Shown here one piece after another: positions 3,879-59,054 of a stretch of 64,000 nt of DNA. The notes beneath the pieces are model-generated. The model was given only the letters and a program-made list of their open reading frames with translations. It was not told where the DNA came from and searched no databases. The stretch lies in assembly GCF_046119375.1 (NCBI RefSeq), contig NW_027362765.1, forward strand, positions 95,976,001 through 96,040,000. The letters are read 5' to 3'. Position 1 is the stretch's first letter; each line of letters opens with the position of its first letter. The stretch comes from Phyllobates terribilis. Its lineage: Eukaryota. The position numbers and the translations under genes were made by a program.

Positions 3879-4865
3879 TGTGGCACCCAAGGAGTCTGGT
3901 TGCCACAGTGGCATTGCCTCCCTCACAAGGGGGTGATGCCATGCCTGGAAGCAAGGAGGGGTCCTCTAATCAGGTTTTGCTAGCATGCAACACTTTCCTG
4001 GCTCCAGACCAGCAAGGGGAGATCCTCCCCTTAGCAACTGGGATCTGGAGGCGGGGTTAGTGAGTGTGAGGAGAACAGACAGGAGTTGAAGTCAGGACGT
4101 CGCCGAGGAAAGACCTAGGGAGTGGAGCTGCACGGCAGCTCACCCCAGAGGAAGCGCAGAAGAACCGGACACCGGAGTCCGAGGTTGTGGGGCACTGAAG
4201 GCCCAGCAGCAGAAACCGGAGGGCAGGAGACTGCAGGTCTCCTGGCCCCATCAGACGCCCGGAGGCTCAGCAGCACATAGGGCCCAGCACCGCCACGTGG
4301 GAGCGACAATCCAGGAAGGCCTGAGCTGCCTGCCATACGGGTGAGAACAGAGATGTTTTACTCAGGGACGAGGGACACAGCATAGCTATACGCAGCAGGG
4401 CCAAAGAGGTAGCGCAAAGGGAAGGCCTACAACTCCACCTGGCTAGGTGGATCCCCCAACTTGCTTCCAGGTCGCCCGGACCTCTACTACCAGCTAGTAC
4501 CCGTGCCTCGGTCTGCCTAACCACCGCAAGTAAAGATGAGAGGAAACCTGCGCCATCACCCTCTGCACTGTACTGCACCTCGAGCGCTACTTCCATAACA
4601 GCAACATCTACACTGTCCTGGAGCTAAGCTCTACCTGTGGAGAGCTAAACCAACTCTGCTGCATTAACAACAGCTCCGCAGCGGCGGCTCCACATAGCCG
4701 CATACCACAGGTGGCGTCACAAACTCTATACAAGAACTATAAATCCCCTATAAATATCCCCTTTTATTGACCGCCCTTGGCCACGACCGGGTCACCGCCA
4801 CTGTGACATCTCCCCTGCACGGACCGGCCCGGCACAGAGTACCCCACGGCTCAGGGGGCGTGTCA
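3879..4865. mobile_element. Solo LTR (Gypsy-like), 987 bp, in PDE6G intron
   Basis: TGTGGCACCC...GGGGGCGTGTCA termini (TG..CA), 4-bp TSD CAGC on both sides; shares 3' motifs (gaccgggtcaccgccact) with 25440-26672. Confidence 0.8.
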
Positions 4866-4930
4866 CAGCCCCATTCATTTCTGTAGAGCAGAGCTTTCAG
4901 AGGTTGTGGAGTAAGACAACTGCAGGTTTA

Positions 4931-5729
4931 GGCTGCGTGCACACGATGCGTTTTTCATGCGTTTCCGCTGCGGAAACGCATGAAAAACGCATGGTAATCC
5001 GCACCCCATGGTCCCCAATGGCATTCCGCAATGTCAATGCACATGCTGCGGATTTTTCCGCAGCGCTCATAAATGCGCAGCATGTTCATCAATTTTGCGG
5101 AAGCGCCGCCATTGACTTGCATTGAGACGCATAGAATCCGTGTCTGTACATTTGTACAAGCGGATTTTATGCGTCTCTATGTGCGGATGGTACCCAGGTC
5201 TGGAGGAGAGAAGACTCTCATCCAGACCTGGGTACCATTGTACCTGTGAAAAAAATAATAAAATAAAAAATAAAGTTTATATTCACCTGTCCGGCGGCCC
5301 CTGCAGGACTTCTCCTTCCAGGACCTGAGATGTTGTCGCGGTCATGTGACCGCAGCCTGTCTCGCGAGATGCCGGCAAGCCAGGAAGGAACCAGGAAGGA
5401 GCGCGACAGCACACGCGGCGGCATCGGAGGTAAGTATAGCTTTTATTTTTTTCTTTTTACGGTCACACTATATAAATCCATGCTGTTTGCATGGATTTAT
5501 ACAGTGTGACCTAGTTGTCAAGCACTTTCCAAGTGATGCTATCGCCTGGAAAGTGCTTGTCAGTCCACATGCGGAAACACATGCGTTAACGCATGTGGAT
5601 ACGCATGTGAATCCGCATGTATTCTGCAGGAAAAACGCATGTACAATCTGCATGCGTTTTTTCTGCCAGGGAGATGCAGATATGCTGCAGAAATTTTCTG
5701 CTTCATTTCTGCATCGTGGGCACATAGCC
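4931..5729. mobile_element. PIF/Harbinger-type MITE, about 800 bp (family copy 1)
   Basis: TIR ggctgcgtgcacacgatgc / gcatcgtgggcacatagcc; internal sequence shared with 43142-43981 and 44049-44886. Confidence 0.8.
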
Positions 5730-5920
5730 GTAGACTATGCAAAAAGTTTATTTTGTCATCTAACTATGGAGACACACAAGTCTGCATAGGAGCTGTGTAC
5801 ATAAAACAATAGCTTTCATTGCTTTGCTTTTGGATGCATTGGAGCACTATAAAAATGGATGCAAAAGCATACACAACTGAAAGTCAATACAGCTAAAATA
5901 TCTCCATCCTTCCCTTACAG

Positions 5921-5961
5921 ATTTGGTGACGACATTCCCGGAATGGAAGGTCTAGGAACAG
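5921..5961 (+). CDS. PDE6G: PDE6 gamma coding exon 2
   Basis: cccttacag|A TTT GGT GAC GAC ATT CCC GGA ATG GAA GGT CTA GGA ACA G|gtgata = FGDDIPGMEGLGT; phases fit the flanking exons. Confidence 0.96.
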
Positions 5962-6822
5962 GTGATACAATCTTTCCATTGTATTATTTCATTATGGAGG
6001 TGAAAGGGTTAAATCGCTGATATTAAGAAAAATGCTGACTTGCATAAAAAAAAAAAAAAAGCAGCAGAGATCCTGAAACCTTTGAGGATTTTAAACAAAC
6101 TGTTTTAGAAAGCTGCAGAACTTTTCACTATACGATGATTCCATGCCTTTTTCAAACCCCAGTCAATTGCAATTTGCCGGCTCTATTATTTCAGTAGAGG
6201 AACTCTGTATCAATAAGAGAGTTGTCCCTTTACGTAAAGCACGAGGCAGGGATGAAACATTTACCCGTTCCCCAACATAAACCACTAGGGAGCTCTCAAC
6301 ACCTTTTAACTACCCTGCAGGACTGACTTTAAAGTGTGCCTCCACCATGGGACTATAAAGATACTGTACATTTCTCATGTAGTCACCCTACCTGGTGCCC
6401 TGTGTTTGCCACCTGTCAGCTTTCTTGGAAGTAGGAGAAACGGAACGGTGACCTGAGCAGAGAAGGCAAATGGAGGGCATCAGGTCACTTTCCAGTCCCA
6501 GGGTGGAGGGTCACTTAATTTTTCACTTCCTTTGACCACCACGGATGCTAGAATGAGCATCCTATACAACCCTACATTTGGAATAACACTCCTTACTCGC
6601 CAAGACCACCAGGGATACTAGGATCAACATCTTCTACTCTAGACCACCAGGGATGGTATGAGAATTTCTTACTCCCAGAGACCACCTGAGATACTAAGAC
6701 CACCAGGTATATTATTATTAACCCAGTAATTACCGCCAGGTGTGGGAGAATGGAAAAAATATAGAAAAATGATATAGTTTGATTAGTTATCAAATACTAC
6801 ATCTGTTGTTATCTCTTTTCAG

Positions 6823-6899
6823 ACATCACCGTCATCTGCCCCTGGGAAGCCTTCAACCACTTGGAGCTGCACGAACTGGCCCAGTATGGCATCATCTAG
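6823..6899 (+). CDS. PDE6G: PDE6 gamma coding exon 3 (terminal)
   Basis: ttttcag|AC ATC ACC ... = [25 protein letters not shown]; spliced total is 87 aa. Confidence 0.97.
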
Positions 6900-8537
6900 A
6901 GACATTGGTCAACCCTGTATTTATTTCCTGGTGGCTGGTCGCTACAGTGAGGTGTAGTGTGTAGGGATCGGTACAGGACAAGGTCACCCAATTTTGCTTT
7001 TCCGAGGTCTTGGTGTTGACCTGCTGGCTTTCTCTTTTGACAAAAAAACAGAAACTTGCACACACATTGCATTGGTCCCAACTAATAGAGATCTCTGCAA
7101 CATCCACCAGGTTGTGCAGCGCGGGAAAATAAATTATGTAAATCTCCAAAAGATTTGAAAAATTTGCTCCTGGCGTCATTACCAAGCATTGACCACAACA
7201 TATATTATCTGGGATTAAATTATGTTATCTCCATTTTTGGAAAAATCTGCCCCCATCTATTAGCATTAGGGACCGTGTTGGCACCAATAAACCATTCTGC
7301 CATGATCAGGGTATTTAGGCACAGAACCAAGGGTATGAAATAGCCTTCCTTCATCCTGGGCAAAAAAATCTATGACGGTCACCCAACTCCAATCACTCAT
7401 GATGGCATCCCTCTCATCAGACCCTACAATAGAGCACAAATCCCTAATCTTTTTATTTTGGGAAGAAGAAGCCTTCTTCGGTGTCCTTTATTACCCTCTA
7501 TTGGGAGACACAGACAAGTAGGTGGAGCTATTGCTTAGGTGAAGGGGATGTCAGACTTTCTGATAATATAAAGTATATTGTATCGGCTACATTTTTTTGC
7601 CCATATTTTGGGTACTGTATGTCTTACCTCCCCTGTTTAGTTTTTAGTTGTATCATGTCATAATCCAAAATTATGTAATAAAAAAAAAACATTTTTGGTA
7701 GATATGTTTTATTGTATGTCTTTACGCCCTTTCAAGGATCTCTGGTTGAGAGGCAGGTTTCTGAAGCAGGAACCTCTCCCCACCACTCTGTCCGCAGTAA
7801 AGAAACATATCACTTATCAGAAGGATAGGGGCATGAAGGATCACGCTAGCAATCAACTGACAAAGGAGTAAAATGCTTGTTCACCGGCTGATTGGATCAT
7901 TAATTTTGGCAGAACATCATCCTATGTAGACAGGATATATTTTGCCGATAATATGATCGTTCTGTGCTCATATAATCTCATTAACAATTGTTCTGTGTTC
8001 ACAGAATTCTGGTCAGTTTGTCATAACAGGCCATCAAAAGACTGCCTATTGTGTTGTACAGTATATAACCGTATGGCTTTATATACCCCAACAGACTGTA
8101 AATACCCTACTACTGGGACCCCCACCGATCCCGAGAACAAGGCTCTGAAAAGTTCTGTTAGAACGCATCTGTACCCATGAGACAGAGAGAGCATATCAGA
8201 GCCCGATTCTCAGGATTTGTGTGGGTCCCAGTGGTCGTTCCCCCCACCAGTCTGCAAGTTATAACGTACCAATTTTTTTCCTTTTATACAACTATTATGT
8301 TTTGCGTTACTGCATCCAAATAAATTATGGACGGTTAGTACCAACCCTGCCAGCAGGTGACAACTCCAGACCCAAATCTTACTGTGGACATTAAGAGCAT
8401 GTGCGCACTACATATTTTAGATGATGGCATACCCACATCATTTTTAATACAGAAGAAACCAGTAGCGTTTTCCCTGAAGAATTTTTACTAACGTGATTTT
8501 TTGGTGCTGCGCCGCTTTTTTTAAATTCCATATTATA

Positions 8538-8542
<5 letters not shown>

Positions 8543-8598
<56 letters not shown>
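8543..8598. repeat. (TA)n microsatellite
   Basis: Direct inspection; sits where the left TIR of the interrupted Tc1 would be. Confidence 0.95.
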
Positions 8599-8601
<3 letters not shown>

Positions 8602-9617
8602 CTACCTGTCCACTTAGGAAGCAACACTGATTGTGAATCAATTTCTCCTGCTGTTGTGCAAATGGAACAGACAACTAGTAGAAATGATAGACAATTAGCA
8701 AGATACCCTCTATAAAGGAGCGGTACTGCAGGTGGTGACCACAGACCATTTCTCTGTTCTCATCCTTTTTGGCTGTTGTTACAGTCCCTTTTTCATTTTG
8801 CCATTGCTCTTGTTATGCACACGCCCGGGCTAAGCGGCGTGTGCGTGTGATTGGTAGTGATTCCACTGGACCGTGCCGGAGAGTGAATGCCTGGAGGGGC
8901 GTGACTAAGTATTCACCCGATCCGACCAGGGTCGCACGACGGCATACGACGCCAGTGCACCAAGGAGGAACCGAGCAGAGGGACCAGGTGCTACTCCAGG
9001 ACAGACCCCGGACACGGCTGTTGACCCACACAGGGGAATACAGGAACAGGCTGGTAGGCTGGCACACAGACTGGTGGGTATAGGCAGGCACGACTGGTAT
9101 GCAGGCAGGCGGGTATGCAGGCAGGGGGGTAAAGGCAAGCACAGCTAGAGTGCAGACAGGGAGGCACTAGCAGGTAGGAACACAGGCGGGATAGGACCCA
9201 GTACACACCGGGACTCAGGAACATTACAGGCAGAGGGGTACAGGCAGGGCAGGACAGGACTGCCGGAGCAGCGGGCAGAAGCAGGGCAGGACAGGACTGC
9301 CGGAGCAGAACGGACAGGACTCTGTACACACGGAACAGACAGGAAGGGAAAGGCAGAGCCAGATACCCACAGGGTACTTGCAGTGAAGTAGCGAGGGGAC
9401 CACAAACTCACAAACGGGAGTACAGAGACAACAAGCAGGAGTTAGGTACGAGTTCAGACTCTGCAGAAAAAGGAAGGGAACGGACATAGAGGAAAAACAG
9501 GTAAAGGATAGGAGAGAGTTCAGACTGGAACTGAGTGTACGGAGGGGACCGACACTGCAGCGGGATACAGGAGTGGGTCTGGGAATACTGCCCCCAGAGA
9601 GGCGGGACGAACAGGCA

Positions 9618-9805
9618 AGGAGCGTGTTCAGACAGGACAGACAAAATACAGGAGCGGGTCTAGGTAATCGGCCCCTAGAAGGCGGGAGGAACAGGCTAGG
9701 AGCGTGTTCAGACAGGACAGACAAAATACAGGAGCGGGTCTAGGTAATCGGCCCCTAGAAGGCGGGAGGAACAGGCTAGGAGCGTGTTCAGACAGGACAG
9801 ACAAG
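9618..9805. repeat. 80-bp tandem repeat (about 2.3 copies) inside LTR; also at +3492 and +6984
   Basis: aggagcgtgttcagacaggacagaca recurs at 9618, 9698, 9778. Confidence 0.9.
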
Positions 9806-9816
9806 ATACACAGAAA

Positions 9817-10126
9817 GGACTCAGTTCAGACACGGGAACTAATACCGCAAAGCAGGAGACATACAGGACTCAGTTCAGACACGGGAACTAATACCGCAAA
9901 GCAGGAGACATACAGGACTCAGTTCAGACACGGGAACTAATACCGCAAAGCAGGAGACATACAGGACACAGTTCAGACACGGGAACTAATACCGCAAAGC
10001 AGGAGACATACAGGACACAGTTCAGACACGGGAGCTGATACCGCAAAGCAGGAGACATACAGGACACAGTTCAGACACGGGAGCTGATACCGCAAAGCAG
10101 GAGACATACAGGACTAAGTTCAGACA
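9817..10126. repeat. 49-bp tandem repeat (about 6.3 copies) inside LTR; also at +3492 and +6984
   Basis: ggactcagttcagacacgggaactaataccgcaaagcaggagacataca recurs every 49 bp. Confidence 0.92.
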
Positions 10127-10253
10127 GGCCTGGAAATACAGCCTCCAGGAAAGGCAGACAAGGAAACAAAGACGAGACCTGGCACCTTCAGAGTGCAAGC
10201 ACACACTGAAGGAAAACACTATGCTCAGGCAGGGATAGAAGGGAGCTGCTGAG

Positions 10254-12158
10254 CTATATACCAAGTGTCAGACAGCAATAGGCTGAGGACGCACAAGGGG
10301 CGTGACCCACAGCAGGTACAAAGAGCAGGAAGTGATCGGGCGCCGCCCTTAAGCAGCAGAGACAGACACAAACAGACAGCATGGAGGGAAGCCAGAGTGA
10401 CATTCTGGACAGGAGATCAAGTGCGCTCTCTTGCACAGTGGGAGATGGACCACCATGCAAGGACGCCGCCAGGTATGTTACAGTACCTCCCCCCTTACGC
10501 CCCCTCTTCTTCAGGCCTGCCAGAATCTTCCGCAGGGAATTCGAGGACCAGTCGTTCACTGGGTTGGAGGGGGACAGAGACTTGAGGGTAATCTCTGCTT
10601 CGAGGTACATCTTGTCAAGCTCACAGGAAAAAATAGACGGGTTATCAGGTACATAATGAGGAAAAGTCACTGTCTCTTTGTTATCTGGTGGTATCCCGGA
10701 GGATTCAGGAAACAACTGGAGGTCCTCCGCCGGGTCAGAAGAGTGCAGAGGCTCAGAGAAAACAACTGCTTCAGAGTACACTAGGTCGGACTCACTGGAG
10801 GAAGCAGGCGAGGTATCGGGTACCGAGTATAGGAAAGTCTCTGTCCATTCACCACCAGGTGGCACCCCGAAGGGTTCTGAACACAACTGGAGGTCCTCCG
10901 CCTGGTCGGAGGGGTGTAGAGACTCGGGAGTAACCTCTGCTTCGGAGTACACTAGGTCGGACTCACTGGACGAAGCGAGCGAGGTATCAGGTACAGGATA
11001 TAGGAAAGTCTCTGTCCATTCACCACCAGGTGGCACCCCGAAGGATTCTGAACACAACTGGAGGTCCTCCGCCTGGTCGGAGGGGTGTAGAGACTCAGGA
11101 GTAACCTCTGCTTCGGAGTACACTAGGTTGGACTCACTGGACGAAGCGAGCGAGGTATCAGGTACAGAGTATAGGAGAGTCTCTGTCCTTTCGCTACCAG
11201 GTAGCACCCCGAAGGGTTCAGGAGACAACTGGAGATCCTCCGCCTGGTCGGAGGGGTGTAGAGACTCGGAGGTAACTACCACTTTGGGGTACCCATTGTC
11301 AGGCTCACAGGACGAAGCGGACAAGGTATTGAGTACCGGGTGTAGAGAAGTCTCTCTCCATTTGTCATCGAGTGGTATCCCGGAGGATTCAGGAGGCAAC
11401 AGGGGATCCTCCGCCAGGTAGTAGAGGTGCACAGACTCAGAGGTAACCACAGCTTTGGAGCATCCTTGGACATGCACACCGGTTAAAGAGAGAGAAGCAT
11501 CTGATGCCGGGTGCAGGAAGTTCTCCTGTGTGGAGTCTGGATGGGCAGAAGTCTCTTCGGGCAGGAGAACTGGTGCACTACCCACGCACATTACCCATTG
11601 GGGTTTCTCCGGGATACAGGGAGATGAAGCTTCAGTAGGGACTTCAAGGTTGGGGTCAGGAGGTCTCAGGGAGGACAGACCCTGGCGTGACGGCTTGCCT
11701 CTACGTCTAGCACGTCTGGACTGCCTCTTGAGGTTGAGAGAAGTATTCCGGAAAGCGTAGTCACCCTGTGAGGATTCTGGGTGGGCAGTAGTCTCATTGG
11801 GCTGGAGGACTATTGCGCTACCCACACACATTACCCATTGGGGCTGCTCCGGGATATTGGGAGGTGAAGCTTCAGCAGGAGCCTCCGGGTTAGGATCATC
11901 GAAGACCATTAGAAAGGCCACCAGGAAGGCCATTAGGTCCCGGAGGATCGGATCCTGTGTTTCATATAGGGGGTTGATCCATTCCAAGGCATCACCCGCC
12001 AGGTAAGACATAATAAAGGCCACTTTAGCCCAATCGGAAGGAAAATAGAGAGGGTAGGCCTTAAAGTGTAGCATGCATTGCTCCACAAATGCACGACACT
12101 GTCTTGGATCCCCATAGTAACGTGGCGGATCCGCAGGAACGAGAGCTGATAGATCCAT
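10254..12158 (-). CDS. Gag-derived ORF: Sushi/Ty3 capsid N-terminal domain (LDOC1/RTL-like) plus acidic 57-aa repeats, copy 1
   Basis: aa 1-89 PPRYYGDPRQCRAFVEQC..F..YP..FPSDWAKVAFIMSYLAGDALEW..P resembles retrotransposon Gag/RTL domain; 171-nt internal repeats keep frame; 634-aa uninterrupted ORF. Confidence 0.8.
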   Translation of the reverse strand: MDLSALVPADPPRYYGDPRQCRAFVEQCMLHFKAYPLYFPSDWAKVAFIMSYLAGDALEWINPLYETQDPILRDLMAFLVAFLMVFDDPNPEAPAEASPPNIPEQPQWVMCVGSAIVLQPNETTAHPESSQGDYAFRNTSLNLKRQSRRARRRGKPSRQGLSSLRPPDPNLEVPTEASSPCIPEKPQWVMCVGSAPVLLPEETSAHPDSTQENFLHPASDASLSLTGVHVQGCSKAVVTSESVHLYYLAEDPLLPPESSGIPLDDKWRETSLHPVLNTLSASSCEPDNGYPKVVVTSESLHPSDQAEDLQLSPEPFGVLPGSERTETLLYSVPDTSLASSSESNLVYSEAEVTPESLHPSDQAEDLQLCSESFGVPPGGEWTETFLYPVPDTSLASSSESDLVYSEAEVTPESLHPSDQAEDLQLCSEPFGVPPGGEWTETFLYSVPDTSPASSSESDLVYSEAVVFSEPLHSSDPAEDLQLFPESSGIPPDNKETVTFPHYVPDNPSIFSCELDKMYLEAEITLKSLSPSNPVNDWSSNSLRKILAGLKKRGRKGGGTVTYLAASLHGGPSPTVQESALDLLSRMSLWLPSMLSVCVCLCCLRAAPDHFLLFVPAVGHAPCASSAYCCLTLGI

Positions 12159-12290
12159 CTGGACGGTGCGTAATTTCGCCTGGAACTCAGCTAAGAGAAA
12201 AAAAAAAAATTTATTTATTTATTTTAATGCATATATTCGCTGGAAAAACTTCTCAAAGAGCGAAGGCCGTGAGGCTCAACGGGAACCATG

Positions 12291-12300
12291 GCCTGAGCAT
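12291..12300 (-). other. Putative self-priming primer-binding site (also 15783-15792)
   Basis: ATGCTCAGGC on the minus strand, 2 nt inside the 5' LTR end; I do not recognise it as a tRNA 3'-end complement. Confidence 0.7.
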
Positions 12301-13712
12301 GCTGTTATGCACACGCCCGGGCTAAGCGGCGTGTGCGTGTGATTGGTAGTGATTCCACTGGACCGTGCCGGAGAGTGAATGCCTGGAGGGGCGTGACTAA
12401 GTATTCACCCGATCCGACCAGGGTCGCACGACGGCATACGACGCCAGTGCACCAAGGAGGAACCGAGCAGAGGGACCAGGTGCTACTCCAGGACAGACCC
12501 CGGACACGGCTGTTGACCCACACAGGGGAATACAGGAACAGGCTGGTAGGCTGGCACACAGACTGGTGGGTATAGGCAGGCACGACTGGTATGCAGGCAG
12601 GCGGGTATGCAGGCAGGGGGGTAAAGGCAAGCACAGCTAGAGTGCAGACAGGGAGGCACTAGCAGGTAGGAACACAGGCGGGATAGGACCCAGTACACAC
12701 CGGGACTCAGGAACATTACAGGCAGAGGGGTACAGGCAGGGCAGGACAGGACTGCCGGAGCAGCGGGCAGAAGCAGGGCAGGACAGGACTGCCGGAGCAG
12801 AACGGACAGGACTCTGTACACACGGAACAGACAGGAAGGGAAAGGCAGAGCCAGATACCCACAGGGTACTTGCAGTGAAGTAGCGAGGGGACCACAAACT
12901 CACAAACGGGAGTACAGAGACAACAAGCAGGAGTTAGGTACGAGTTCAGACTCTGCAGAAAAAGGAAGGGAACGGACATAGAGGAAAAACAGGTAAAGGA
13001 TAGGAGAGAGTTCAGACTGGAACTGAGTGTACGGAGGGGACCGACACTGCAGCGGGATACAGGAGTGGGTCTGGGAATACTGCCCCCAGAGAGGCGGGAC
13101 GAACAGGCAAGGAGCGTGTTCAGACAGGACAGACAAAATACAGGAGCGGGTCTAGGTAATCGGCCCCTAGAAGGCGGGAGGAACAGGCTAGGAGCGTGTT
13201 CAGACAGGACAGACAAAATACAGGAGCGGGTCTAGGTAATCGGCCCCTAGAAGGCGGGAGGAACAGGCTAGGAGCGTGTTCAGACAGGACAGACAAGATA
13301 CACAGAAAGGACTCAGTTCAGACACGGGAACTAATACCGCAAAGCAGGAGACATACAGGACTCAGTTCAGACACGGGAACTAATACCGCAAAGCAGGAGA
13401 CATACAGGACTCAGTTCAGACACGGGAACTAATACCGCAAAGCAGGAGACATACAGGACACAGTTCAGACACGGGAACTAATACCGCAAAGCAGGAGACA
13501 TACAGGACACAGTTCAGACACGGGAGCTGATACCGCAAAGCAGGAGACATACAGGACACAGTTCAGACACGGGAGCTGATACCGCAAAGCAGGAGACATA
13601 CAGGACTAAGTTCAGACAGGCCTGGAAATACAGCCTCCAGGAAAGGCAGACAAGGAAACAAAGACGAGACCTGGCACCTTCAGAGTGCAAGCACACACTG
13701 AAGGAAAACACT

Positions 13713-13752
13713 ATGCTCAGGCAGGGATAGAAGGGAGCTGCTGAGCTATATA
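13713..13752 (-). promoter_or_regulatory. LTR promoter: TATATA box (13747-13752) and predicted TSS at 13722 (same at 10221-10260 and 17205-17244)
   Basis: Minus-strand TATATA lies 30 nt upstream of GCCTGAGCAT, the exact complement of the PBS-position sequence. Confidence 0.65.
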
Positions 13753-15650
13753 CCAAGTGTCAGACAGCAATAGGCTGAGGACGCACAAGGGGCGTGACCC
13801 ACAGCAGGTACAAAGAGCAGGAAGTGATCGGGCGCCGCCCTTAAGCAGCAGAGACAGACACAAACAGACAGCATGGAGGGAAGCCAGAGTGACATTCTGG
13901 ACAGGAGATCAAGTGCGCTCTCTTGCACAGTGGGAGATGGACCACCATGCAAGGACGCCGCCAGGTATGTTACAGTACCTCCCCCCTTACGCCCCCTCTT
14001 CTTCAGGCCTGCCAGAATCTTCCGCAGGGAATTCGAGGACCAGTCGTTCACTGGGTTGGAGGGGGACAGAGACTTGAGGGTAATCTCTGCTTCGAGGTAC
14101 ATCTTGTCAAGCTCACAGGAAAAAATAGACGGGTTATCAGGTACATAATGAGGAAAAGTCACTGTCTCTTTGTTATCTGGTGGTATCCCGGAGGATTCAG
14201 GAAACAACTGGAGGTCCTCCGCCGGGTCAGAAGAGTGCAGAGGCTCAGAGAAAACAACTGCTTCAGAGTACACTAGGTCGGACTCACTGGAGGAAGCAGG
14301 CGAGGTATCGGGTACCGAGTATAGGAAAGTCTCTGTCCATTCACCACCAGGTGGCACCCCGAAGGGTTCTGAACACAACTGGAGGTCCTCCGCCTGGTCG
14401 GAGGGGTGTAGAGACTCGGGAGTAACCTCTGCTTCGGAGTACACTAGGTCGGACTCACTGGACGAAGCGAGCGAGGTATCAGGTACAGGATATAGGAAAG
14501 TCTCTGTCCATTCACCACCAGGTGGCACCCCGAAGGATTCTGAACACAACTGGAGGTCCTCCGCCTGGTCGGAGGGGTGTAGAGACTCAGGAGTAACCTC
14601 TGCTTCGGAGTACACTAGGTTGGACTCACTGGACGAAGCGAGCGAGGTATCAGGTACAGAGTATAGGAGAGTCTCTGTCCTTTCGCTACCAGGTAGCACC
14701 CCGAAGGGTTCAGGAGACAACTGGAGATCCTCCGCCTGGTCGGAGGGGTGTAGAGACTCGGAGGTAACTACCACTTTGGGGTACCCATTGTCAGGCTCAC
14801 AGGACGAAGCGGACAAGGTATTGAGTACCGGGTGTAGAGAAGTCTCTCTCCATTTGTCATCGAGTGGTATCCCGGAGGATTCAGGAGGCAACAGGGGATC
14901 CTCCGCCAGGTAGTAGAGGTGCACAGACTCAGAGGTAACCACAGCTTTGGAGCATCCTTGGACATGCACACCGGTTAAAGAGAGAGAAGCATCTGATGCC
15001 GGGTGCAGGAAGTTCTCCTGTGTGGAGTCTGGATGGGCAGAAGTCTCTTCGGGCAGGAGAACTGGTGCACTACCCACGCACATTACCCATTGGGGTTTCT
15101 CCGGGATACAGGGAGATGAAGCTTCAGTAGGGACTTCAAGGTTGGGGTCAGGAGGTCTCAGGGAGGACAGACCCTGGCGTGACGGCTTGCCTCTACGTCT
15201 AGCACGTCTGGACTGCCTCTTGAGGTTGAGAGAAGTATTCCGGAAAGCGTAGTCACCCTGTGAGGATTCTGGGTGGGCAGTAGTCTCATTGGGCTGGAGG
15301 ACTATTGCGCTACCCACACACATTACCCATTGGGGCTGCTCCGGGATATTGGGAGGTGAAGCTTCAGCAGGAGCCTCCGGGTTAGGATCATCGAAGACCA
15401 TTAGAAAGGCCACCAGGAAGGCCATTAGGTCCCGGAGGATCGGATCCTGTGTTTCATATAGGGGGTTGATCCATTCCAAGGCATCACCCGCCAGGTAAGA
15501 CATAATAAAGGCCACTTTAGCCCAATCGGAAGGAAAATAGAGAGGGTAGGCCTTAAAGTGTAGCATGCATTGCTCCACAAATGCACGACACTGTCTTGGA
15601 TCCCCATAGTAACGTGGCGGATCCGCAGGAACGAGAGCTGATAGATCCAT
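13746..15650 (-). CDS. Gag-derived ORF copy 2 (translation identical to copy 1)
   Basis: ORF track gives identical 634-aa protein at +3492. Confidence 0.8.
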   Translation of the reverse strand: MDLSALVPADPPRYYGDPRQCRAFVEQCMLHFKAYPLYFPSDWAKVAFIMSYLAGDALEWINPLYETQDPILRDLMAFLVAFLMVFDDPNPEAPAEASPPNIPEQPQWVMCVGSAIVLQPNETTAHPESSQGDYAFRNTSLNLKRQSRRARRRGKPSRQGLSSLRPPDPNLEVPTEASSPCIPEKPQWVMCVGSAPVLLPEETSAHPDSTQENFLHPASDASLSLTGVHVQGCSKAVVTSESVHLYYLAEDPLLPPESSGIPLDDKWRETSLHPVLNTLSASSCEPDNGYPKVVVTSESLHPSDQAEDLQLSPEPFGVLPGSERTETLLYSVPDTSLASSSESNLVYSEAEVTPESLHPSDQAEDLQLCSESFGVPPGGEWTETFLYPVPDTSLASSSESDLVYSEAEVTPESLHPSDQAEDLQLCSEPFGVPPGGEWTETFLYSVPDTSPASSSESDLVYSEAVVFSEPLHSSDPAEDLQLFPESSGIPPDNKETVTFPHYVPDNPSIFSCELDKMYLEAEITLKSLSPSNPVNDWSSNSLRKILAGLKKRGRKGGGTVTYLAASLHGGPSPTVQESALDLLSRMSLWLPSMLSVCVCLCCLRAAPDHFLLFVPAVGHAPCASSAYCCLTLGI

Positions 15651-18600
15651 CTGGACGGTGCGTAATTTCGCCTGGAACTCAGCTAAGAGAAAAAAAAAAA
15701 ATTTATTTATTTATTTTAATGCATATATTCGCTGGAAAAACTTCTCAAAGAGCGAAGGCCGTGAGGCTCAACGGGAACCATGGCCTGAGCATGCTGTTAT
15801 GCACACGCCCGGGCTAAGCGGCGTGTGCGTGTGATTGGTAGTGATTCCACTGGACCGTGCCGGAGAGTGAATGCCTGGAGGGGCGTGACTAAGTATTCAC
15901 CCGATCCGACCAGGGTCGCACGACGGCATACGACGCCAGTGCACCAAGGAGGAACCGAGCAGAGGGACCAGGTGCTACTCCAGGACAGACCCCGGACACG
16001 GCTGTTGACCCACACAGGGGAATACAGGAACAGGCTGGTAGGCTGGCACACAGACTGGTGGGTATAGGCAGGCACGACTGGTATGCAGGCAGGCGGGTAT
16101 GCAGGCAGGGGGGTAAAGGCAAGCACAGCTAGAGTGCAGACAGGGAGGCACTAGCAGGTAGGAACACAGGCGGGATAGGACCCAGTACACACCGGGACTC
16201 AGGAACATTACAGGCAGAGGGGTACAGGCAGGGCAGGACAGGACTGCCGGAGCAGCGGGCAGAAGCAGGGCAGGACAGGACTGCCGGAGCAGAACGGACA
16301 GGACTCTGTACACACGGAACAGACAGGAAGGGAAAGGCAGAGCCAGATACCCACAGGGTACTTGCAGTGAAGTAGCGAGGGGACCACAAACTCACAAACG
16401 GGAGTACAGAGACAACAAGCAGGAGTTAGGTACGAGTTCAGACTCTGCAGAAAAAGGAAGGGAACGGACATAGAGGAAAAACAGGTAAAGGATAGGAGAG
16501 AGTTCAGACTGGAACTGAGTGTACGGAGGGGACCGACACTGCAGCGGGATACAGGAGTGGGTCTGGGAATACTGCCCCCAGAGAGGCGGGACGAACAGGC
16601 AAGGAGCGTGTTCAGACAGGACAGACAAAATACAGGAGCGGGTCTAGGTAATCGGCCCCTAGAAGGCGGGAGGAACAGGCTAGGAGCGTGTTCAGACAGG
16701 ACAGACAAAATACAGGAGCGGGTCTAGGTAATCGGCCCCTAGAAGGCGGGAGGAACAGGCTAGGAGCGTGTTCAGACAGGACAGACAAGATACACAGAAA
16801 GGACTCAGTTCAGACACGGGAACTAATACCGCAAAGCAGGAGACATACAGGACTCAGTTCAGACACGGGAACTAATACCGCAAAGCAGGAGACATACAGG
16901 ACTCAGTTCAGACACGGGAACTAATACCGCAAAGCAGGAGACATACAGGACACAGTTCAGACACGGGAACTAATACCGCAAAGCAGGAGACATACAGGAC
17001 ACAGTTCAGACACGGGAGCTGATACCGCAAAGCAGGAGACATACAGGACACAGTTCAGACACGGGAGCTGATACCGCAAAGCAGGAGACATACAGGACTA
17101 AGTTCAGACAGGCCTGGAAATACAGCCTCCAGGAAAGGCAGACAAGGAAACAAAGACGAGACCTGGCACCTTCAGAGTGCAAGCACACACTGAAGGAAAA
17201 CACTATGCTCAGGCAGGGATAGAAGGGAGCTGCTGAGCTATATACCAAGTGTCAGACAGCAATAGGCTGAGGACGCACAAGGGGCGTGACCCACAGCAGG
17301 TACAAAGAGCAGGAAGTGATCGGGCGCCGCCCTTAAGCAGCAGAGACAGACACAAACAGACAGCATGGAGGGAAGCCAGAGTGACATTCTGGACAGGAGA
17401 TCAAGTGCGCTCTCTTGCACAGTGGGAGATGGACCACCATGCAAGGACGCCGCCAGGTATGTTACAGCTCTCACCCCTAGAAGTACAGTAGCATGAGGCG
17501 GTGTCTACAGTACAACCCACAGAAGTTGCTCAAGTAGTGCAGTTCATCCAGGATGGCACATCAATACGAGCTGTGGCAAGAAGGGTAGCTGTGTCTGTCA
17601 GCACAGTGTCCAGAGCATGGACCACATACCAGGAGATGTGGAGGGAGACATAGGAGGGCTACAACCCAGCAGCAGGACCATTACCTCCTCCTTTGTGCAA
17701 GGAGGAACAGGAGGAGCACTGCCAGAGCCCTGCAAAATGACCTCCAGCAGGCCACAAATGTGCATGTGTCTGCACAAACGGTTAGAAACCGACTCCATGA
17801 GGGTGGTATGAGGGCCCGACGTCCACAGATGGGGGTTCTGCTCACAGCCTAACACTGTGCAGGACACTTGGCATTTGCCACAGAACACCAGGATTGGCAA
17901 AGTCGCTACTGGCGCCCTGTGTTCTTCACAGATGAAAGCTGGTTCACACTGAGCACATGTGACAGACATGACAGAGTCTGGAGACGCTGTGGAGAACGAT
18001 CTGCTGCCTGCAACATCCTTCAGCATGACCGTTTTATCAATGGGTCAGTAATGGTATGGGGTGGCATTTGTTTGGAGGGTGGCACAGCCCTCCATGTGCT
18101 CGCCAGAGGTAGCCTGACTGCCATTAGGTACCGAGATGAGATCCTCAGACCCCTTGTGAGACCATATGCTGGTGCGGTTGGCCCTGGGTTCCTCCTAATG
18201 CAGGACAATGCCAGACCTCATGTGGCTGGAGTGTGTCAGCAGTTCCTGCAAGATGAAGGAATTGAAGCTATGGACTGGCCCGCCCGTTCCCCAGACCTGA
18301 ATCCGATTGAGCACATCTGGGATATCATGTCTCGCTCCATCCACCAACATCACGTTGCACCACAGACTGTCCAGGAGTTGGCGGATGCTTTAGTCCAGGT
18401 CTGGGAGGAGATCCCACAGGAGACCATCCGCAACCTCATCAGGAGCATGCCCAGGCATTGTAGGGAGGTCATACAGGCACGTGGATTCCACACACAATAC
18501 CGAGCCTCATTTTGACTTGTTTTAAGGACATTACATCAAAGTTGGATCAGCCTGTAGTGTGTTTTTCCACTTTAATTTTGGGGGTGACTCCAAATCCAGG

Positions 18601-18757
18601 CCTCCATTGGTTAATAAATTTGATTTCCATTGATGATTTTTGTGCGATTCTGTTGTCAGCACATTCAACTTTGTACAGAACAAAGTATTCAATGAGAATA
18701 TTTCATTCAGATCTAGGAGGTGTTATTTGAGTGTTCCCTTTATTTTTTTGAACAGTA

Positions 18758-18762
<5 letters not shown>

Positions 18763-18824
<62 letters not shown>
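18763..18824. repeat. (TA)n microsatellite
   Basis: Direct inspection. Confidence 0.95.
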
Positions 18825-18833
<9 letters not shown>

Positions 18834-19987
18834 TGGCATCTTCCAAGCAGAACCCTTCAGAACAATGGCCACTTCACGGCTTTCGAAAGCCTGAAGCAGT
18901 TAAAGAAAATCCAAAAACCGAAAATCTGCACAGCAAGTAGTTTTAACACTACTGTGCAGATGTTCATTTTTTTTTGGTGCTTTTTAGGCAGGTTTCAGGT
19001 GTTTGAAAGACGTTGCGAGCGCATACTCTTAATCGGTGTCTTCGAGAAGGAAGGGACCAGCTCTTCAGAAAGTATGTGACGTAGCCAAGCCTTCTGTTCA
19101 AAATTGATCAAAACAACCAGATTTCTACATGAGCAGAAATAATGGAGTCATAAGCACTTTAAAGTAGTTGTCCAAAATTAGAAAATCATAGCTGCCATCT
19201 TTGAAAAACAGCTCCACACCGTCTCACGGGTTGTGTGCGGTATTGTGGCTTAACCCCCTTCGCTTTATTGGAGCAGAGCTGCGATACCAAACAAAACCTA
19301 TGGATAAGTGTGGACCTGTTTTTTTTTTTTGTTTGGGGTTCGATGCATGGCTTCCCAAAAAAAAACAATCACTTTTTGCTCATCCTGTAAAAAAAACCAA
19401 CTAATGTACCATGGCGTGTCACAGATGGGTTTGATAATATTAAACTTTGGATTTCTGTCCCTCAAAAAGTGGGTTACTGCTCATCCACTGGTACAATTTG
19501 TAGGGCGTATTTGTTTCTCATGTTAATTTATCCTGGTGTGATGTTAATGCTGTGCTATGCACGATTGATACTCTCCGCTTCAGCTCCTTTTCCCCTCTCA
19601 CAGCACACAGTCACACAAAAAAAATGCAGCTTCATCTCTTCCTCCCACTTAATAATTGTAATGATGTATATGGACATGTGGAAGGCTGAGGTTTTGCACA
19701 GCCCGTAGTTAAGTTCCCTTGCTGTACTAATCCTGCTTCTCCAGATAAATCCTCAGCTTCCTGCGTGCTGGGTGATATAATCTTGCACATATGTACCCAT
19801 CCTTTCTGCTGTCTCTATAAATCACCTGTAATCTGCTCCTCTAATCCTCACTGCACAATGGTTTTATAAGATAAAGGATGACGTGTAGGGGGATATCCTG
19901 CGGATAAGCTGGTACATATGGTATACTGGTTTAGGCAAGGCCCAAAACACTTCCAGATTAACCTTGACACATTCTCAAAGTGTGTAA

Positions 19988-21402
19988 AGGCCCCGTCACA
20001 CATAACGAGATCGCTAGCGAGATCGCTGATGAGTCACGTTTTGGTGACGCATTAGCGATCTCGCTAGCGATCTCGTTATGTCTGACAGGTAGCAACGATC
20101 AGGCCCCTGCTGTGAGATCGCTGATCGTTACAAAGCTTCCTGGACCATTCCTGGGTCGTTGCGCTCCCGCTGGGCAGTGTGCATCGCTGTATTTGACACC
20201 TTGTCAACGACCTCGCTAGCGATTCAGAACTGACACACATTGAGGTGCATAAATTGGACTTTTCTGCGTTCATTGTCCCCGATTGGTGGTCGCTACTGCG
20301 TCCTTGTTTTTTCAGATCCCACCAGCGTTCTCCGGCTGTGACTCCACTTTGAACAAATCAGACATCTTTAGCGAAGTAGGTTTTGTTTGGGGTCTCAAAT
20401 GAGTTTCCATTTTTAATTCATTTATAGGACATCTACCAATTATCTGCTATCATTGCTCTTCAGGGAGGGAGGGCTTGGCTTCTATCTGTATATATATGCT
20501 TTTGCATGGGCAGATATTTTAGGGGTCTCGTGCACACACACCCACACAGCACGTTTTCTGACACGCTGTCGTGGCCAACCGCTTCAGAGTTTTTCACACG
20601 CCAATTAACATGAAGCTTAAATCAATAGACTCTGTTCTTTTGGCCTGTTGCACGCTTCAAAACTTTCTTCGTCGACGTGATGCAATTACGTACTGTCCGC
20701 CTGGCTTTGTGGACTCTGTGGACCGAGCCAATGGGGAAGTGGAGCTCGGTGAATGGCGTGCAAAAGATCCTGCAATTGCAGGCCTTCAACCAGTGGGACA
20801 TGGCAGAAACACCCATGATGCGAAGACCTGCCGCGACAACTACTGCCAGTATTTTAACGGTCCTGGTGCCCCGTCACACATAACGAGATCGCTAACGAGA
20901 TCGCTATTGAAGCCAAGCCCTCCCTCCCTGAAGAGCAATGATAGCAGATAATTGGTAGATGTCCTATAAATGAATTAAAAATGGAAACGCATTTGAGACC
21001 CCAAACAATACCTACTCCACTAAAGATGTCTGATTTGTTCAAAGTGGAGTCACAGCCGGAGAACGCTGGTGGGGTCTGAAAAAACAAGGACGCAGTAGCG
21101 ACCACCAATCGGGACGATGAACGCAGAAAAGTCCAATTTATGCACCTCAATGTGTCTCAGTTCTGAATCGCTTGCGAGGTCGTTGACAAGGTGTCAAATA
21201 CAGCGATGCACACTGCCCAGCGGGAGCGCAACGACCCAGGAATGGTCCAGGAAGCTTTGTAACGATCAGCGATCTCACAGCAGGGGCCTGATCGTTGCTA
21301 CCTGTCAGACATAACGAGATCGCTAGCGAGATCGCTATTGCGTCACCAAACCGTGACTCATCAGCGATCTCGCTAGCGATCTCATTATGTGTGACGGGGC
21401 CT
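19988..21402. mobile_element. PIF/Harbinger-derived element with about 495-bp inverted arms around a transposase fragment
   Basis: Termini AGGCCCCGTCACACA / TGTGTGACGGGGCCT, TAA TSD both sides; 19988-20482 is the reverse complement of 20909-21402. Confidence 0.85.
20571..20868 (+). pseudogene. C-terminal fragment of a Harbinger/PIF (DDE_Tnp_4-like) transposase
   Basis: ANRFRVFHTPINMK...VLLACCTLQNFLRRRD...GEWR...AKTCRDNYCQYFNGPGA resembles Harbinger nuclease C-termini. Confidence 0.7.
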
Positions 21403-21778: not shown

Positions 21779-24522
21779 CAGTGGCTTGCGAAAGTATCCC
21801 CCCCCCCCCCTCCCAGACCACCCCCCTTGGCATGTTTCATGTTTTGCTACCTCACAACCTGGAATTTCATTTTTTTTTTGAGGGATTGCCTCAGTTCATG
21901 TGAAGACTATGCCTACAGCTGTGAACATTTGTTTTTCTTTTTATTGTCTAGCAAGTAGGACAAAATAACTGAAAATTTCAGTGTGCATAACTATTCACCT
22001 ACCCCCCCCCCCCACACACACACTCTAAAGTCAGCTGCAGTCGCTTTGGATGTCTCTATGAGCTTTTCACATCTTGCCATTTTTGCTCATTCCTCAAGGC
22101 AAAACTGCTCCAGCTCCTTCAAATTAGATGGTTTCCTCTGGTGAACAGCAAATCTTCAAGTCTGACCACAGATTCTCAATTGGATTAAGGTCTGGGCTTT
22201 GACTAGGCCAATCCAAACATTTACACGTTTCCCCTTAAACTACTCAAGTGTTGCTTTAGCAGTATGCTTTGGGTCATTGTCTTGTTGGAAGGTGAATCTC
22301 TGTCCCCGTCTCAAATCACTGACAGGCTGAAACAGGTTTTGCTCAAGAATATCCCTGTATTTTGCACCATCCATCTTTCCCTCAACTCAGAATCTTTTCC
22401 TCGTCCCTGCTGCCGAAAAACATCCCACAGCATGCTGCTGCCACCACCATGTTTCACTGTGGGGATGGTGTTCTTGGGTGATGAGCAATGTTGATTTGGC
22501 GCTAGACAGCGTTTATCTTGCTCGTCAAAAAATTCAATTTTGGTCTCATCTGACCACAGCATCTTTCTCCATACATTTGGGGAGTGTGCCACATGTCTTT
22601 TGGCAAACTCAAAACTAGCCTTACAATTTTTGTAAGTAAAGGCTTTTTTTCTGCCCACTTTTCTATAAAGCTCACCTCTATGGAGTGTACGGCTTATTGT
22701 GGTCATATGGACAGATTCTTCTGTCTCTGTGCTGCCTCTCTGATTAATGCCATCCTTGCCGTGCTGAGTGTTTTGGTGGGCGCCCTCTCCTGTCAGGTTT
22801 ATTGTGGTACCATGTTCTTTTCATTTGATGGTGCTCTGGAGGGAGGGGGTGGGGGTCATCAAATATTGTGATTTTTTAACCAAACCCGGCTTTGTAATTA
22901 TCAACAAATTTGAAGATCTCTTTGGTCTTCATGGTATTTGGTTAGTGGTGCCTCTTGCTTAATGGTATTGTAGCCTCTGTGGCTGTGACGCTCACAGCCC
23001 TCCCTGGGAAATGGGGTACTTGGAGCCAGGTCAGATGTTGGGGAGGCAGTCGTGGCCTGGACCCGTTCCGTGCCCAGGGCCGTCACATGAAAGTAATGGG
23101 CCATCAGGGTTGAGTGGTATTATCGACTACGCCACCTGTGGTGTCTGGTGATGCGCCACCAGCGCTGCTAGCAGTCCTCTGAGGCTGGATGTAGTGGCAG
23201 CAGGCGATGTTATAACTCCCCACAGGCGGAGCAGGGCCTCAGGGCAGATGTGACAGGAGGATGGGGAGAGTAGTCCTGGGTCACGCAGGTGCTGTGTGGT
23301 GCAGTGTAGAAATGAAGGAACCAGAGGCCATAGTGATAGTCTTCCAGGTCTTTTACTCACAGTTCCTTTAAGCAGCGGCAAGGCTTCTCCCTGCTCCTCA
23401 CGGATCACTGCGGCCACCAGGGATGAGGGCTCAGCGCACCCAAGGAATTCAGGTACCTCGATCGGGACCCTCCGAGTGTTCCTAACAGTCCCCTTTGAAC
23501 CTCTCCTGTGTGTGTGCGTGCAAAGGCTGGGTCCCACTGGATAAACGCAGGTAGAGGGGTACAGGTGGCGTAGGCCGCTCCGTCTGTATCCCTCCCGGGA
23601 TCCACTAAGCCATTAAGTAACAAAGTCAGATATCGGGGGCCGGTCATCCCTCTTGCAGCAGGAGTCCCTCTGGCCAGGCCAGAATGGAGAGTACAGGTGG
23701 GATACGCCGCTCCGTCGGTGCACCCTGGGATCCTTTTGCTTGTGGAGCTGTCACTAAAGCTCCCACCCTTCTCAAGCAAGGGAACTTGACCGGGGTAGAG
23801 ACACTGTTAACTCCTTCCCGCTCCTCGTGTCAAGGTCAGGGCACGAGGACCGTGTATCTTCAGCACACTGCAGGCTCCTACACAAGGCCACCGTCAGCTG
23901 CAAAGACCACAATCAAAGAACCTTGTGCTTAAGATGGCTGGCTATTTATATATGAAACTATGTGTGCAAACTAAAACTGTGTTCTACCCTTCACCCACTA
24001 CATGGTTCTCCTAACTTTTGGTTCCCCCCACTTGTGATCCTGCTGAGGCAGCACTATGGTGCATACTTGCCTCCCGTAGGTCAGGAGTGTGTAGTGTTGA
24101 ATGTAGATTCAGGGTCCTGACCAGTGCACCTTCCTTACCTGGGTGAGGAGACACTACACCTGCTGACAGGCTGCAGTATCCCCCCTTGTGGCGACCGAAC
24201 CCTCAGGGGCGCCACATGGCCTTTCAGAAAAGGTGTGTATATATACTGACATGTGACACTTGGATTGCACACAGGTGGACTTCCTTTCAATAAGCATGTG
24301 ACATATGAAGGTACTGTAATTGCTTGCACAAGAATTTTTTAGGGGCTTCATCGCAAAAGGGGTAAATATACATATGCCAATTTTTAATTTTTCTCACTTC
24401 ACCAACTTAGACTGTTTAGTGCTGATGCAGCACACACAAATCTGAATAAAATATTTTGTACAGGTTGTAATATAACAAAATAGGTAAGAAGCAAAGGGTG
24501 TGAATACTTTCACAAGCCACTG
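21779..24522 (-). mobile_element. Heavily decayed Tc1 element interrupted by a solo LTR
   Basis: Termini cagtggcttgcgaaagta / tactttcacaagccactg|TA; remnants [13 protein letters not shown] and WSDETKIE. Confidence 0.8.
22984..24216. mobile_element. Solo LTR (1233 bp), opposite orientation to 25440-26672
   Basis: TGTGACGC...GGGGCGCCACA; 4-bp TSD TGGC on both sides. Confidence 0.82.
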
Positions 24523-28178: not shown

Positions 28179-29818
<1,640 letters not shown>

Positions 29819-30836: not shown

Positions 30837-31143
30837 TTAATAAATGGATTTTATTATTCTTACTTCGCTCATGACCCTTTGGGCACAAACAATACATACA
30901 AGTTCAGTGGCGGCCACCATGATGTAAGCAGCGGCAATATCCCAAATTCTGCGGTTGATCCAAAGAACAAGCTGAGGGATGCAGCCTCCCAGGTAGATCA
31001 GGCTGGCAGCCGAGGCTTCACTCATACTAAGGGCTCCAAATCCACACTGGGAATTGGGCACAGTACCGTTCTGAAGTGGGTCGATGCAGCAGGAATAAGG
31101 GACACCACAGGAGTTGACGCCAGGAGAACTGCAGTTGAAATAC
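30837..31143 (-). CDS. TSPAN10: Tetraspanin-10 terminal coding exon
   Basis: ttcctacag|G TAT TTC AAC TGC... = YFNCSSPGVNSCGVPYSCCIDPLQNGTVPNSQCGFGA...LGGCIPQL...IKSIY*; cysteine pattern of tetraspanin EC2 plus TM4. Confidence 0.9.
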
Positions 31144-31725
31144 CTGTAGGAATAGAGACTCGTTAGTTAGAACGTTCACGTGATTATATAGATCTCTCAT
31201 CCCAGTAGACCCTCAGCAAATACGTTGGTAAAGGGGGTTATATCATGTTACGACTCTTGTCGGGTATCCCGGGGCTCCTACCCCATCCCTCATGCTAGGG
31301 GCCCCCTAGCTGGCCCTGTTCCCTGGATTACTTCTGAAGGTGAAGATGCCGGGGCCACGTACCTTGTCTGAGCTCCTCAATCCGCCCTCAGTCTGTTCCC
31401 TTACCCCCCCAGGGAAGAGGGAAGTAGTAGTGTATGGCAGTACACAAACCAGACTAACAAGGCTAAAGGAAAATACCAATCATACAAATATATGCACACA
31501 AACAACACAGGTTAACACTGGGAAGTGGAGGATGGGAAACAAACCAAAACAGAAGAATAGGATTAGCAGGCAAACTAAACCACACAACAGTCTAAGCTGA
31601 AATCCACCACTCTCCAACACACTACATGCAGCATAAGCTAGCTCTGTCAATGATAACCTGCCAAAGTCCAGTATAATATATATATATATATGAGAGTGGC
31701 TAACACTGGACAGCTGAGAGCCTAA

Positions 31726-32328
31726 AGCCCCCGTCTCACATAGCGAGATCGCTGCTGTGTCACGGTTTTGGTGACGCAACAGTGACCTCACCAGCGATGT
31801 CGCTATGTGTGACACTTTGCAACGATCAGGCCCCTGCTGTGAGGTCGCTGATCGCTGCAAAGTGTCCTGGACCATTTTTTGGTCGTTGCTCTCCCGCTGG
31901 TCAGCACACATCGCTGTGTGTGACCAGCGATCAGGCTGGTAACCATGATAAACATCGGGTTACTAGGGGCACACGCGCACCTAGTAACCCGTTGTTTATC
32001 ATGGTTACGAGCCTGCTAAAGTGAGTGGTAACCTCCCACTGTAGCAGAGTGGTAACCATGATAAACAACGGGTTACTAGGAGCGTGTGTGCCCCTAGTAA
32101 CCCGATGTTTACCATAGTTACCAGCCTGCTCCTGCTTCAGCCGCAGGCTGGTAACCAGGAGCAGGACATCGTGGAAAGATTCTTTCCACGATTTCGCTGC
32201 TCCCCTGATCGTTGATGAGCCTGCCTGTTTGACAGCTCACCAGCGACCACATAGCGACGGAGCAACGATCCCTGACAGGTCGTATCGTTGTCGGGATCAT
32301 TGCAGCGTCGCTAAGTGTGACGGGGCCT
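31726..32328. mobile_element. Harbinger-type MITE (same terminal family as 19988-21402) in TSPAN10 intron
   Basis: Termini agcccccgtctcaca / tgtgacggggcct with TAA TSD; two internal hairpins of about 28-bp stem (31940-32007, 32051-32122). Confidence 0.8.
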
Positions 32329-48860: not shown

Positions 48861-48946
<86 letters not shown>

Positions 48947-49571: not shown

Positions 49572-49641
49572 GCTCACACAATTCCATGTTGGTGCAGTGT
49601 CATGTTGTAAAATCTTCTCTTTTTGTGTTTTTTTTCCACAG

Positions 49642-59044: not shown

Positions 59045-59054
59045 ATTCAATGGC

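Follow-up and report, generated by a model that had tools for sequence, protein, structure and literature searches.

A pol-less Sushi-type retroelement with a half-capsid reading frame in a three-LTR tandem in the genome assembly of Phyllobates terribilis

Retrotransposons with long terminal repeats (LTRs) have been described in several lineages as tandems whose neighbouring units share an LTR, in the order LTR-internal-LTR-internal-LTR within one outer target site duplication (TSD): in rice, among tandem miniature terminal-repeat retrotransposons (TRIMs) and Cassandra elements, in Drosophila and in kangaroos. A rice pangenome study reports 266 shared-LTR tandems and leaves two mechanisms of origin open (PMC11899658); non-autonomous families of beet are described with 97 tandems, of which 65 contain three LTRs and 73 are flanked by a TSD (PMC13570524), and Drosophila tandems are reported as frequent and ascribed to LTR recombination (PMC5932611). 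Here, we analyze such an array in an amphibian, a host that differs from those of the known arrays. It is built from a retroelement without pol and occupies positions 8811-17466 of a stretch of 64,000 nucleotides from Phyllobates terribilis (assembly GCF_046119375.1, contig NW_027362765.1, positions 95,976,001 to 96,040,000, forward strand), referred to below as the window.

Three groups of described elements and genes are close to the element in this array. The first is the Tf1/sushi group of chromoviruses, including Sushi-ichi and Amn-ichi, Amn-ni and Amn-san of the vertebrate V-clade, whose hallmark is a primer-binding site that pairs with the RNA's own 5' end (PMC6317226, PMC4600332). Sushi LTR models are described as normally holding AATAAA within the LTR, and the LTRs of the Sushi training set average 572 bp (PMC3601003); among the LTR clades of Xenopus tropicalis, Amn-san chromoviruses are reported to be the most abundant (PMC4131045). 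The second group comprises gag-only elements, namely the plant TR-GAG elements and the young vertebrate elements BHIKHARI-1 and BHIKHARI-2 of zebrafish and ENS-1 of chicken (PMC12067270). The third consists of the sushi-derived domesticated mammalian genes RTL8 and LDOC1; RTL8 is described as a derivative retaining only the capsid N-lobe, which enters and antagonises PEG10 particles (PMC11684626).

The triple-LTR structure proposed in a preliminary description of this DNA, together with the TG..CA ends, the polypurine tract (PPT) and the single GCTCT TSD around the whole array, is present in the assembly as described. Exact coordinates and direct string comparison show three string-identical LTRs of 1,672 bp, alternating with two letter-identical internal regions of 1,820 bp (Table 1), and self-BLAST of the window returns 5,165 bp at 100%, gap-free, within the array. 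The element is oriented along the minus strand, its LTRs end in TG..CA on both strands, and a match between two flanking 5-mers such as GCTCT is expected by chance about 1 time in 1,000. The identity of the units, formerly judged by eye, holds throughout and includes the A12 run. Since the outer LTRs differ at zero positions, their divergence is below 0.18% at 95%, in agreement with the very recent event that had been proposed; at a general substitution rate of the order of 1e-9 per site per year, the array would be under about 1 million years old unless gene conversion acted.

The sequences flanking the array are the two halves of one old, decayed Tc1 copy. In comparison with an uninterrupted relative at 44886-46108 (minus strand), the left flank is 79% identical over 202 bp and the right flank 88% over 1,037 bp; the relative carries one pentamer at the equivalent site, matching GCTCT at 4/5 positions and followed by a 6-nt length difference. 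Nesting within a DNA transposon is shared with the rice tandem TLI2, which lies in a Mutator-like element (PMC11899658).

Twelve Gag or Gag-Pol relatives were used as tblastn queries against the window. Inside the array only a capsid piece was matched, matches to reverse transcriptase (RT) falling elsewhere in the window, at 57.3-58.1 kb; neither these queries nor the Pfam scan of the open reading frame (ORF) detected a protease, RT, RNase H or chromo-integrase in the array. The pol genes of an autonomous chromovirus are thus missing, as the preliminary description had noted, and its proposal that the element must be mobilised in trans is supported by this structure. Its further proposal of a Sushi-type ancestry is backed both by the Gag relatives (a DUF4939 domain, with amphibian Gag and Gag-Pol proteins as best matches, the top ones 51-56% identical) and by a self-priming site which, like a 634-codon ORF in each unit, had escaped notice. 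We consider the element almost certainly a non-autonomous Sushi derivative.

The primer site (internal nt 3-12) is a perfect 10-nt complement of LTR nt 253-262, which start 30 nt past the TATA-like word. When the first 40 internal bases were shuffled (n=20,000), a 10-mer match arose near the TATA in 2 cases, compared with 69 when the whole LTR was considered. The primer site is therefore predicted to pair with the transcript's own 5' end, the Tf1/sushi signature, rather than with a tRNA. If transcription starts at LTR nt 253, U3 would measure 252 nt and R-U5 1,420 nt, a length increased by the 49- and 80-bp repeats; the whole LTR, at 1,672 bp, is much longer than the mean of 572 bp in the Sushi training set. 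TG..CA ends and a 5-bp TSD are likewise shared with the Tf1/sushi chromoviruses; the element differs from them in lacking protease, RT, RNase H, integrase and chromodomain and, within Gag, the capsid C-lobe, the zinc knuckle and the N-terminal coiled coil.

With respect to the classes of non-autonomous elements, a two-LTR unit would measure 5,164 bp. TRIMs and large retrotransposon derivatives (LARDs) are described as non-coding elements of under 1 kb or over 4 kb, respectively (PMC13570524). The earlier TRIM/LARD-like label thus stands for the LARD size (>4 kb); it fails for the TRIM size (under 1-1.5 kb) and for the absence of coding capacity, as the element carries an open, Gag-derived frame of 634 codons. 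With LTRs, a primer-binding site, a PPT, a gag ORF and no pol, the element is closer to TR-GAG and other gag-only elements, which share the single Gag-derived ORF of about 600 aa, the lack of pol, the young age and the multi-copy state. It differs from TR-GAG in that its Gag is incomplete, falling short of two capsid lobes plus a nucleocapsid, and from BHIKHARI and ENS-1, which are retroviral and described with a full capsid domain, in being derived from Ty3/gypsy and encoding one lobe plus acidic repeats.

The ORF exceeds chance expectation (438 codons was the longest open stretch among 2,000 shuffles), crosses the PPT and extends 229 nt into U3, where its stop overlaps the TATA-like word. 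Its first 90 residues correspond to DUF4939 (Pfam E 1.1e-7, above the cutoff), the sole Pfam match of the ORF and the same domain as in RTL8 and LDOC1. A protein search among representatives gave 1,645 matches at E<=0.001, with a best identity of 55%. A Pfam scan of 30 of the 150 matches listed found DUF4939 in 30/30, Retrotrans_gag in 28/30 and a chromodomain in 3/30, and nine matches were looked up, of which seven are named and all seven amphibian (five frog, two caecilian). The homology ends at aa 90, where full Gags begin the capsid C-lobe. Among the 150 matches listed, 83 show a C-lobe match, 37 stop no more than 40 aa past the N-lobe, and the remaining 30 carry a different tail, in most cases a broken gene model by eye; the test that is positive in these 83 relatives detects no C-lobe in the ORF, and the acidic tail is unmatched among the 150 (best E 0.52). 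One caecilian record, automatically named LDOC1, shares 53% identity and terminates 2 residues beyond this lobe boundary.

The predicted model of the lobe has a predicted local distance difference test (pLDDT) value of 88.9 and aligns to the N-lobe of the dArc1 capsid (residues 47-121) with a Z of 9.3 and a root-mean-square deviation of 2.0 over 73 aligned residues. Scores against Ty1 C-lobe structures (Z 8.2-9.0) are near this N-lobe value, so that structure scores by themselves do not separate an N-lobe from a C-lobe; the N-lobe assignment follows from the position within full Gags. Foldseek with the lobe model returned nothing at E<=0.001, the sequence search of PDB gave chance matches only, and word-based protein searches at E<=0.001 yielded 0/8,000 candidates for the whole ORF and 0/63 for residues 1-125, with 0/270 among shorter proteins, longer ones not being searched in that way. 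Matches in the Atlas, all below 0.9 and leads only, were of Gag type. The rest of the ORF is Pro/Ser-rich and acidic, with 54 D+E versus 7 K+R in aa 231-520, and includes the 57-aa repeats. Because the C-lobe and the zinc knuckle are missing, the half-capsid protein would be unable to form a particle alone and could at most be a co-assembling accessory. A second, 81% identical duplication is located in the linker (11525-11658 and 11765-11898, 240-bp spacing) and repeats a QPQWVMCVGSA-like motif directly after the capsid lobe.

The multi-copy state suspected earlier is supported by public sequencing data. Among 24 runs listed, 16 hold at least half of the query words, all from one organism; contigs of four runs, three DNA and one guessed to be RNA, were aligned to one unit plus its right flank. 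The runs gave 48,924, 38,313, 36,283 and 1,305 contigs, those matching the Tc1 flank counted in, covering 30/30 bins, and in 3/3 DNA runs the family is highly abundant, with tens of thousands of variant contigs over both the LTR and the internal region. Mean depth per contig at common variant sites was about 4,600-13,900 for internal sites and 14,000-20,800 for LTR sites, with 8-31 for the shallowest contigs listed, which suggests hundreds of near-identical, mostly full-length copies, a rough estimate as contig depth is not copy number. In the run guessed to be RNA, mixed other sequence lies close to the LTR ends in 5 contigs at one end and 1 at the opposite one, which hints weakly at further insertion sites. 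That depth in run X9 is greater over the LTR than over the internal region was rejected as a sign of expression, the RNA label being guessed and contig depth a poor measure. Outside these runs, the LTR-end motif had 0 matches in metagenomes, the protein was found in 0/80 candidate metagenomic stretches, and one 12-residue match in viral contigs was taken as chance.

Variation within the family suggests selection on the protein. Of the 23 variants listed within the internal stretch of the ORF, 12 are synonymous, a weak excess over the 32% expected (one-sided p 0.034), none creates a stop, and the three indels listed all lie in the LTR; these counts are from listed variants, with 4 more existing, and many rows represent single contigs. 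For the tail, the evidence is mixed: differences among the 57-aa repeats are spread evenly over codon positions (68/63/63), and the chance of the tail staying free of stops is 0.10.

The tandem itself is probably real and present in the animal, and its likeliest origin, which we propose tentatively, is an unequal LTR-LTR exchange after a single recent insertion. According to this scheme, a normal two-LTR copy of an amphibian Tf1/sushi-type (Amn-like) chromovirus derivative would have been inserted by integrase into the old Tc1, making the GCTCT TSD. Its RNA would start about 30 nt behind the TATA, at LTR nt 253, and the first 10 nt, which are seen to be complementary to the primer site, may prime without tRNA as in Tf1, while capsid, RT, RNase H and integrase would be supplied by an autonomous relative. 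The 5' and 3' LTRs of this one insertion may then have misaligned between sister chromatids or homologues and exchanged, yielding the three-LTR array and, as the reciprocal product, a solo LTR. In-place exchange of this kind is reasonably likely if the tandem is real, and shared-LTR tandems have been ascribed mainly to LTR-LTR recombination elsewhere (PMC5932611, PMC13570524). One template for both units, rather than two family members, is indicated by letters that are rare in the family and shared across the array, one in all three LTRs (0.02-0.04% of summed contig depth) and one in both internal regions (0-1.5% of contig depth). The single TSD and the exact junctions exclude recombination between two loci as well as a double insertion at one site, which would leave four LTRs and an inner TSD. 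The depth of the rare letters was discarded as a test of two versus three LTRs, there being no single-copy depth reference.

Several results weigh against an exchange in place. No second TSD was seen among the contigs aligned, and no listed contig, all of short-read type, spans the aligned stretch; neither a solo-LTR or two-LTR allele of the locus nor a helper was seen, no genome-wide search having been made. The perfect identity of the units is equally expected from an assembly duplication. On its minus strand, the LTR contains 0/12 of the poly(A) hexamers tested, which makes read-through and a preformed tandem plausible, and the rice pangenome study could not separate recombination from the preformed-tandem route (PMC11899658).

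A possible, if rather unlikely, alternative is that an ordinary, very young two-LTR copy was extended because the assembler went round the LTR-internal loop once more. The 0 differences over 5,164 bp, the A12 run and tandem repeats included, would follow from such an error, the family is highly repetitive, and the window has two N runs, both short (216 and 140 bases) and far from the array; the lack of a spanning contig leaves room for this artefact. However, current long reads can span an array of 8.7 kb, and loops of this kind are usually collapsed, not expanded, by assemblers of short reads. Real three-LTR arrays with a kept TSD are also frequent, as the beet families illustrate (65/97 and 73/97; PMC13570524).

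We regard as unlikely a tandem formed before integration, in which a three-LTR cDNA, made by read-through of a weakly terminating LTR or by an additional strand transfer, would integrate in one step. This route, which has been proposed for TRIMs and rice tandems (PMC11899658), likewise predicts one TSD and identical units; the read-through template could be a tandem source copy or a circle with one LTR, and the LTR without tested hexamers is accompanied, shortly behind the primer site, by two AATAAA words (internal nt 80 and 88). On the other hand, non-canonical signals may be present in the LTR, two rounds of reverse transcription over 3.5 kb would have to have left 0 differences, and no second tandem locus was seen, again without a genome-wide search. 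Integrase-independent recombination, with cDNA or a one-LTR circle entering one of the LTRs of the copy already in place, known for yeast elements (as cited in PMC11899658) and keeping one TSD, is improbable, as the incoming unit would usually be a different family member whereas the two units share family-rare letters, so that it fits only the locus's own progeny.

As a tandem, the array is ordinary and adds a vertebrate example to the pattern known in plants, flies and kangaroos. What is mildly new is an RTL8/LDOC1-like half-capsid on a still-multiplying element: a family without enzymes, with self-priming apparently intact across a predicted 1.4-kb loop and with half a capsid gene, seems to have expanded recently into hundreds of copies. 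RTL8 and LDOC1 are host genes, fixed and free of LTRs; the half-capsid described here differs from them in residing on a multiplying element and in carrying a tail of some 540 aa. In the literature searched, of which coverage was partial, we found no mobile family of vertebrates whose Gag is restricted to the N-lobe; Repbase and Dfam lay outside the search and may well hold the family.

A more speculative and quite doubtful reading is that the element is a satellite that keeps, under selection, only the capsid N-lobe and a long acidic disordered tail, and that its protein co-assembles with helper Gag, which would promote packaging of the satellite's RNA or dampen the helper, as an independent and still mobile parallel of the RTL8/LDOC1 architecture. 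In its boldest form, the tandem would serve as the efficient source copy, because canonical poly(A) signals are confined to the stretch just behind the primer site and can thus finish a full-length RNA only in the second unit. If true, the satellite half-capsid would be a model for how half-capsid regulators of the RTL8/LDOC1 type arise. Should the protein be made and enter helper particles, one could test whether truncated capsids of the RTL8 type were at first a selfish trait of satellites and were adopted by hosts later; should it not be made, the element is one more non-autonomous Gypsy family of the kind held in repeat libraries.

Table 1. Coordinates of the array, its features and the interrupted transposon in the window
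Feature	Position	Strand	Basis
5' part of interrupted Tc1-like transposon	8599-8810	+	homology over 8599-8800
Left TSD copy GCTCT	8806-8810	.	sequence
3' LTR, 1,672 bp, TG..CA	8811-10482	-	self-BLAST and string comparison
Tandem repeats in LTR, 80 bp x 3.1 and 49 bp x 6.3, in all three LTRs, within putative R-U5	9565-10126	.	
634-codon ORF (counted from first Met) with capsid N-lobe, Pro/Ser-rich linker and acidic 57-aa repeats	10254-12158	-	
Internal region, downstream unit	10483-12302	-	string comparison
Polypurine tract, 3 nt from LTR	10486-10496; second copy 13978-13988	-	
171-bp (57-aa) repeat x 4.5, 83% matches, indel-free	10687-11460; second copy 14179-14952	.	
DUF4939/Gag capsid N-terminal lobe, aa 9-90	11889-12134; second copy 15381-15626	-	
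Primer-binding site, downstream unit	12291-12300	-	identity to upstream unit
Shared middle LTR, junctions exact, zero extra bases	12303-13974	-	self-BLAST and string comparison
Second, identical 634-codon ORF	13746-15650	-	
Internal region, upstream unit	13975-15794	-	string comparison
AT-rich leader patch: ATTAAA, two AATAAA, then T12 and 3'-splice-site-like end 32 nt before ORF Met	15683-15720; repeated in downstream unit at 12191-12228	-	
Primer-binding site of upstream unit at internal nt 3-12, complement of LTR nt 253-262	15783-15792	-	
5' LTR	15795-17466	-	self-BLAST and string comparison
Putative transcript 5' end and self-primer (LTR nt 253-262)	17205-17214	-	start site predicted
TATATA, sole TATA-like word of LTR, 30 nt before self-primer	17239-17244	-	
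Right TSD copy GCTCT	17467-17471	.	sequence
3' part of interrupted Tc1-like transposon, decayed DDE_3 transposase	17467-18504	+	homology over 17488-18504; Pfam

The leader preceding the ORF measures 1,564 nt and contains 12 upstream ATGs, which makes plain scanning unlikely. On the element strand, the A12 run reads as a T12 ending in a splice-acceptor-like AG, right behind the two AATAAA words, and this site ranked first among 96 YAG sites. Splicing at it was not adopted, since upstream donors are not strong, the best having a rough score of 2.9, and the joint is absent among the 15 joints shown of 101. A strong-context ATG after the primer site opens just 21 codons and may be the ancestral gag start.

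Further Tc1/mariner copies are located at 990-1988, 26673-27638 and 28507-29599, in addition to the uninterrupted relative at 44886-46108; the first has an open 332-aa transposase-like frame with inverted repeats on either side (623-870 and 2013-2261). A tetraspanin gene on the minus strand (30840-33755) has two coding exons (Pfam Tetraspanin E 1.6e-29), the last at about 31140-30840, and is presumably similar to TSPAN10. The array is outside its coding span, about 13 kb 3' of it. A decayed DIRS-like retroelement occupies 54490-60467, with an RT identified by Pfam (RVT_1) and inverted terminal repeats at 54501-54626 and 60341-60467; its RNase H-like and tyrosine recombinase-like frames were recognized by eye and had no Pfam match. 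Degenerate minisatellite arrays are present at 36664-37751 and 48070-49572, the second with a strong strand skew, and two GC-rich pieces (22980-23900 and 25500-26400) resemble, by eye, solo LTRs or LTR fragments of other families.

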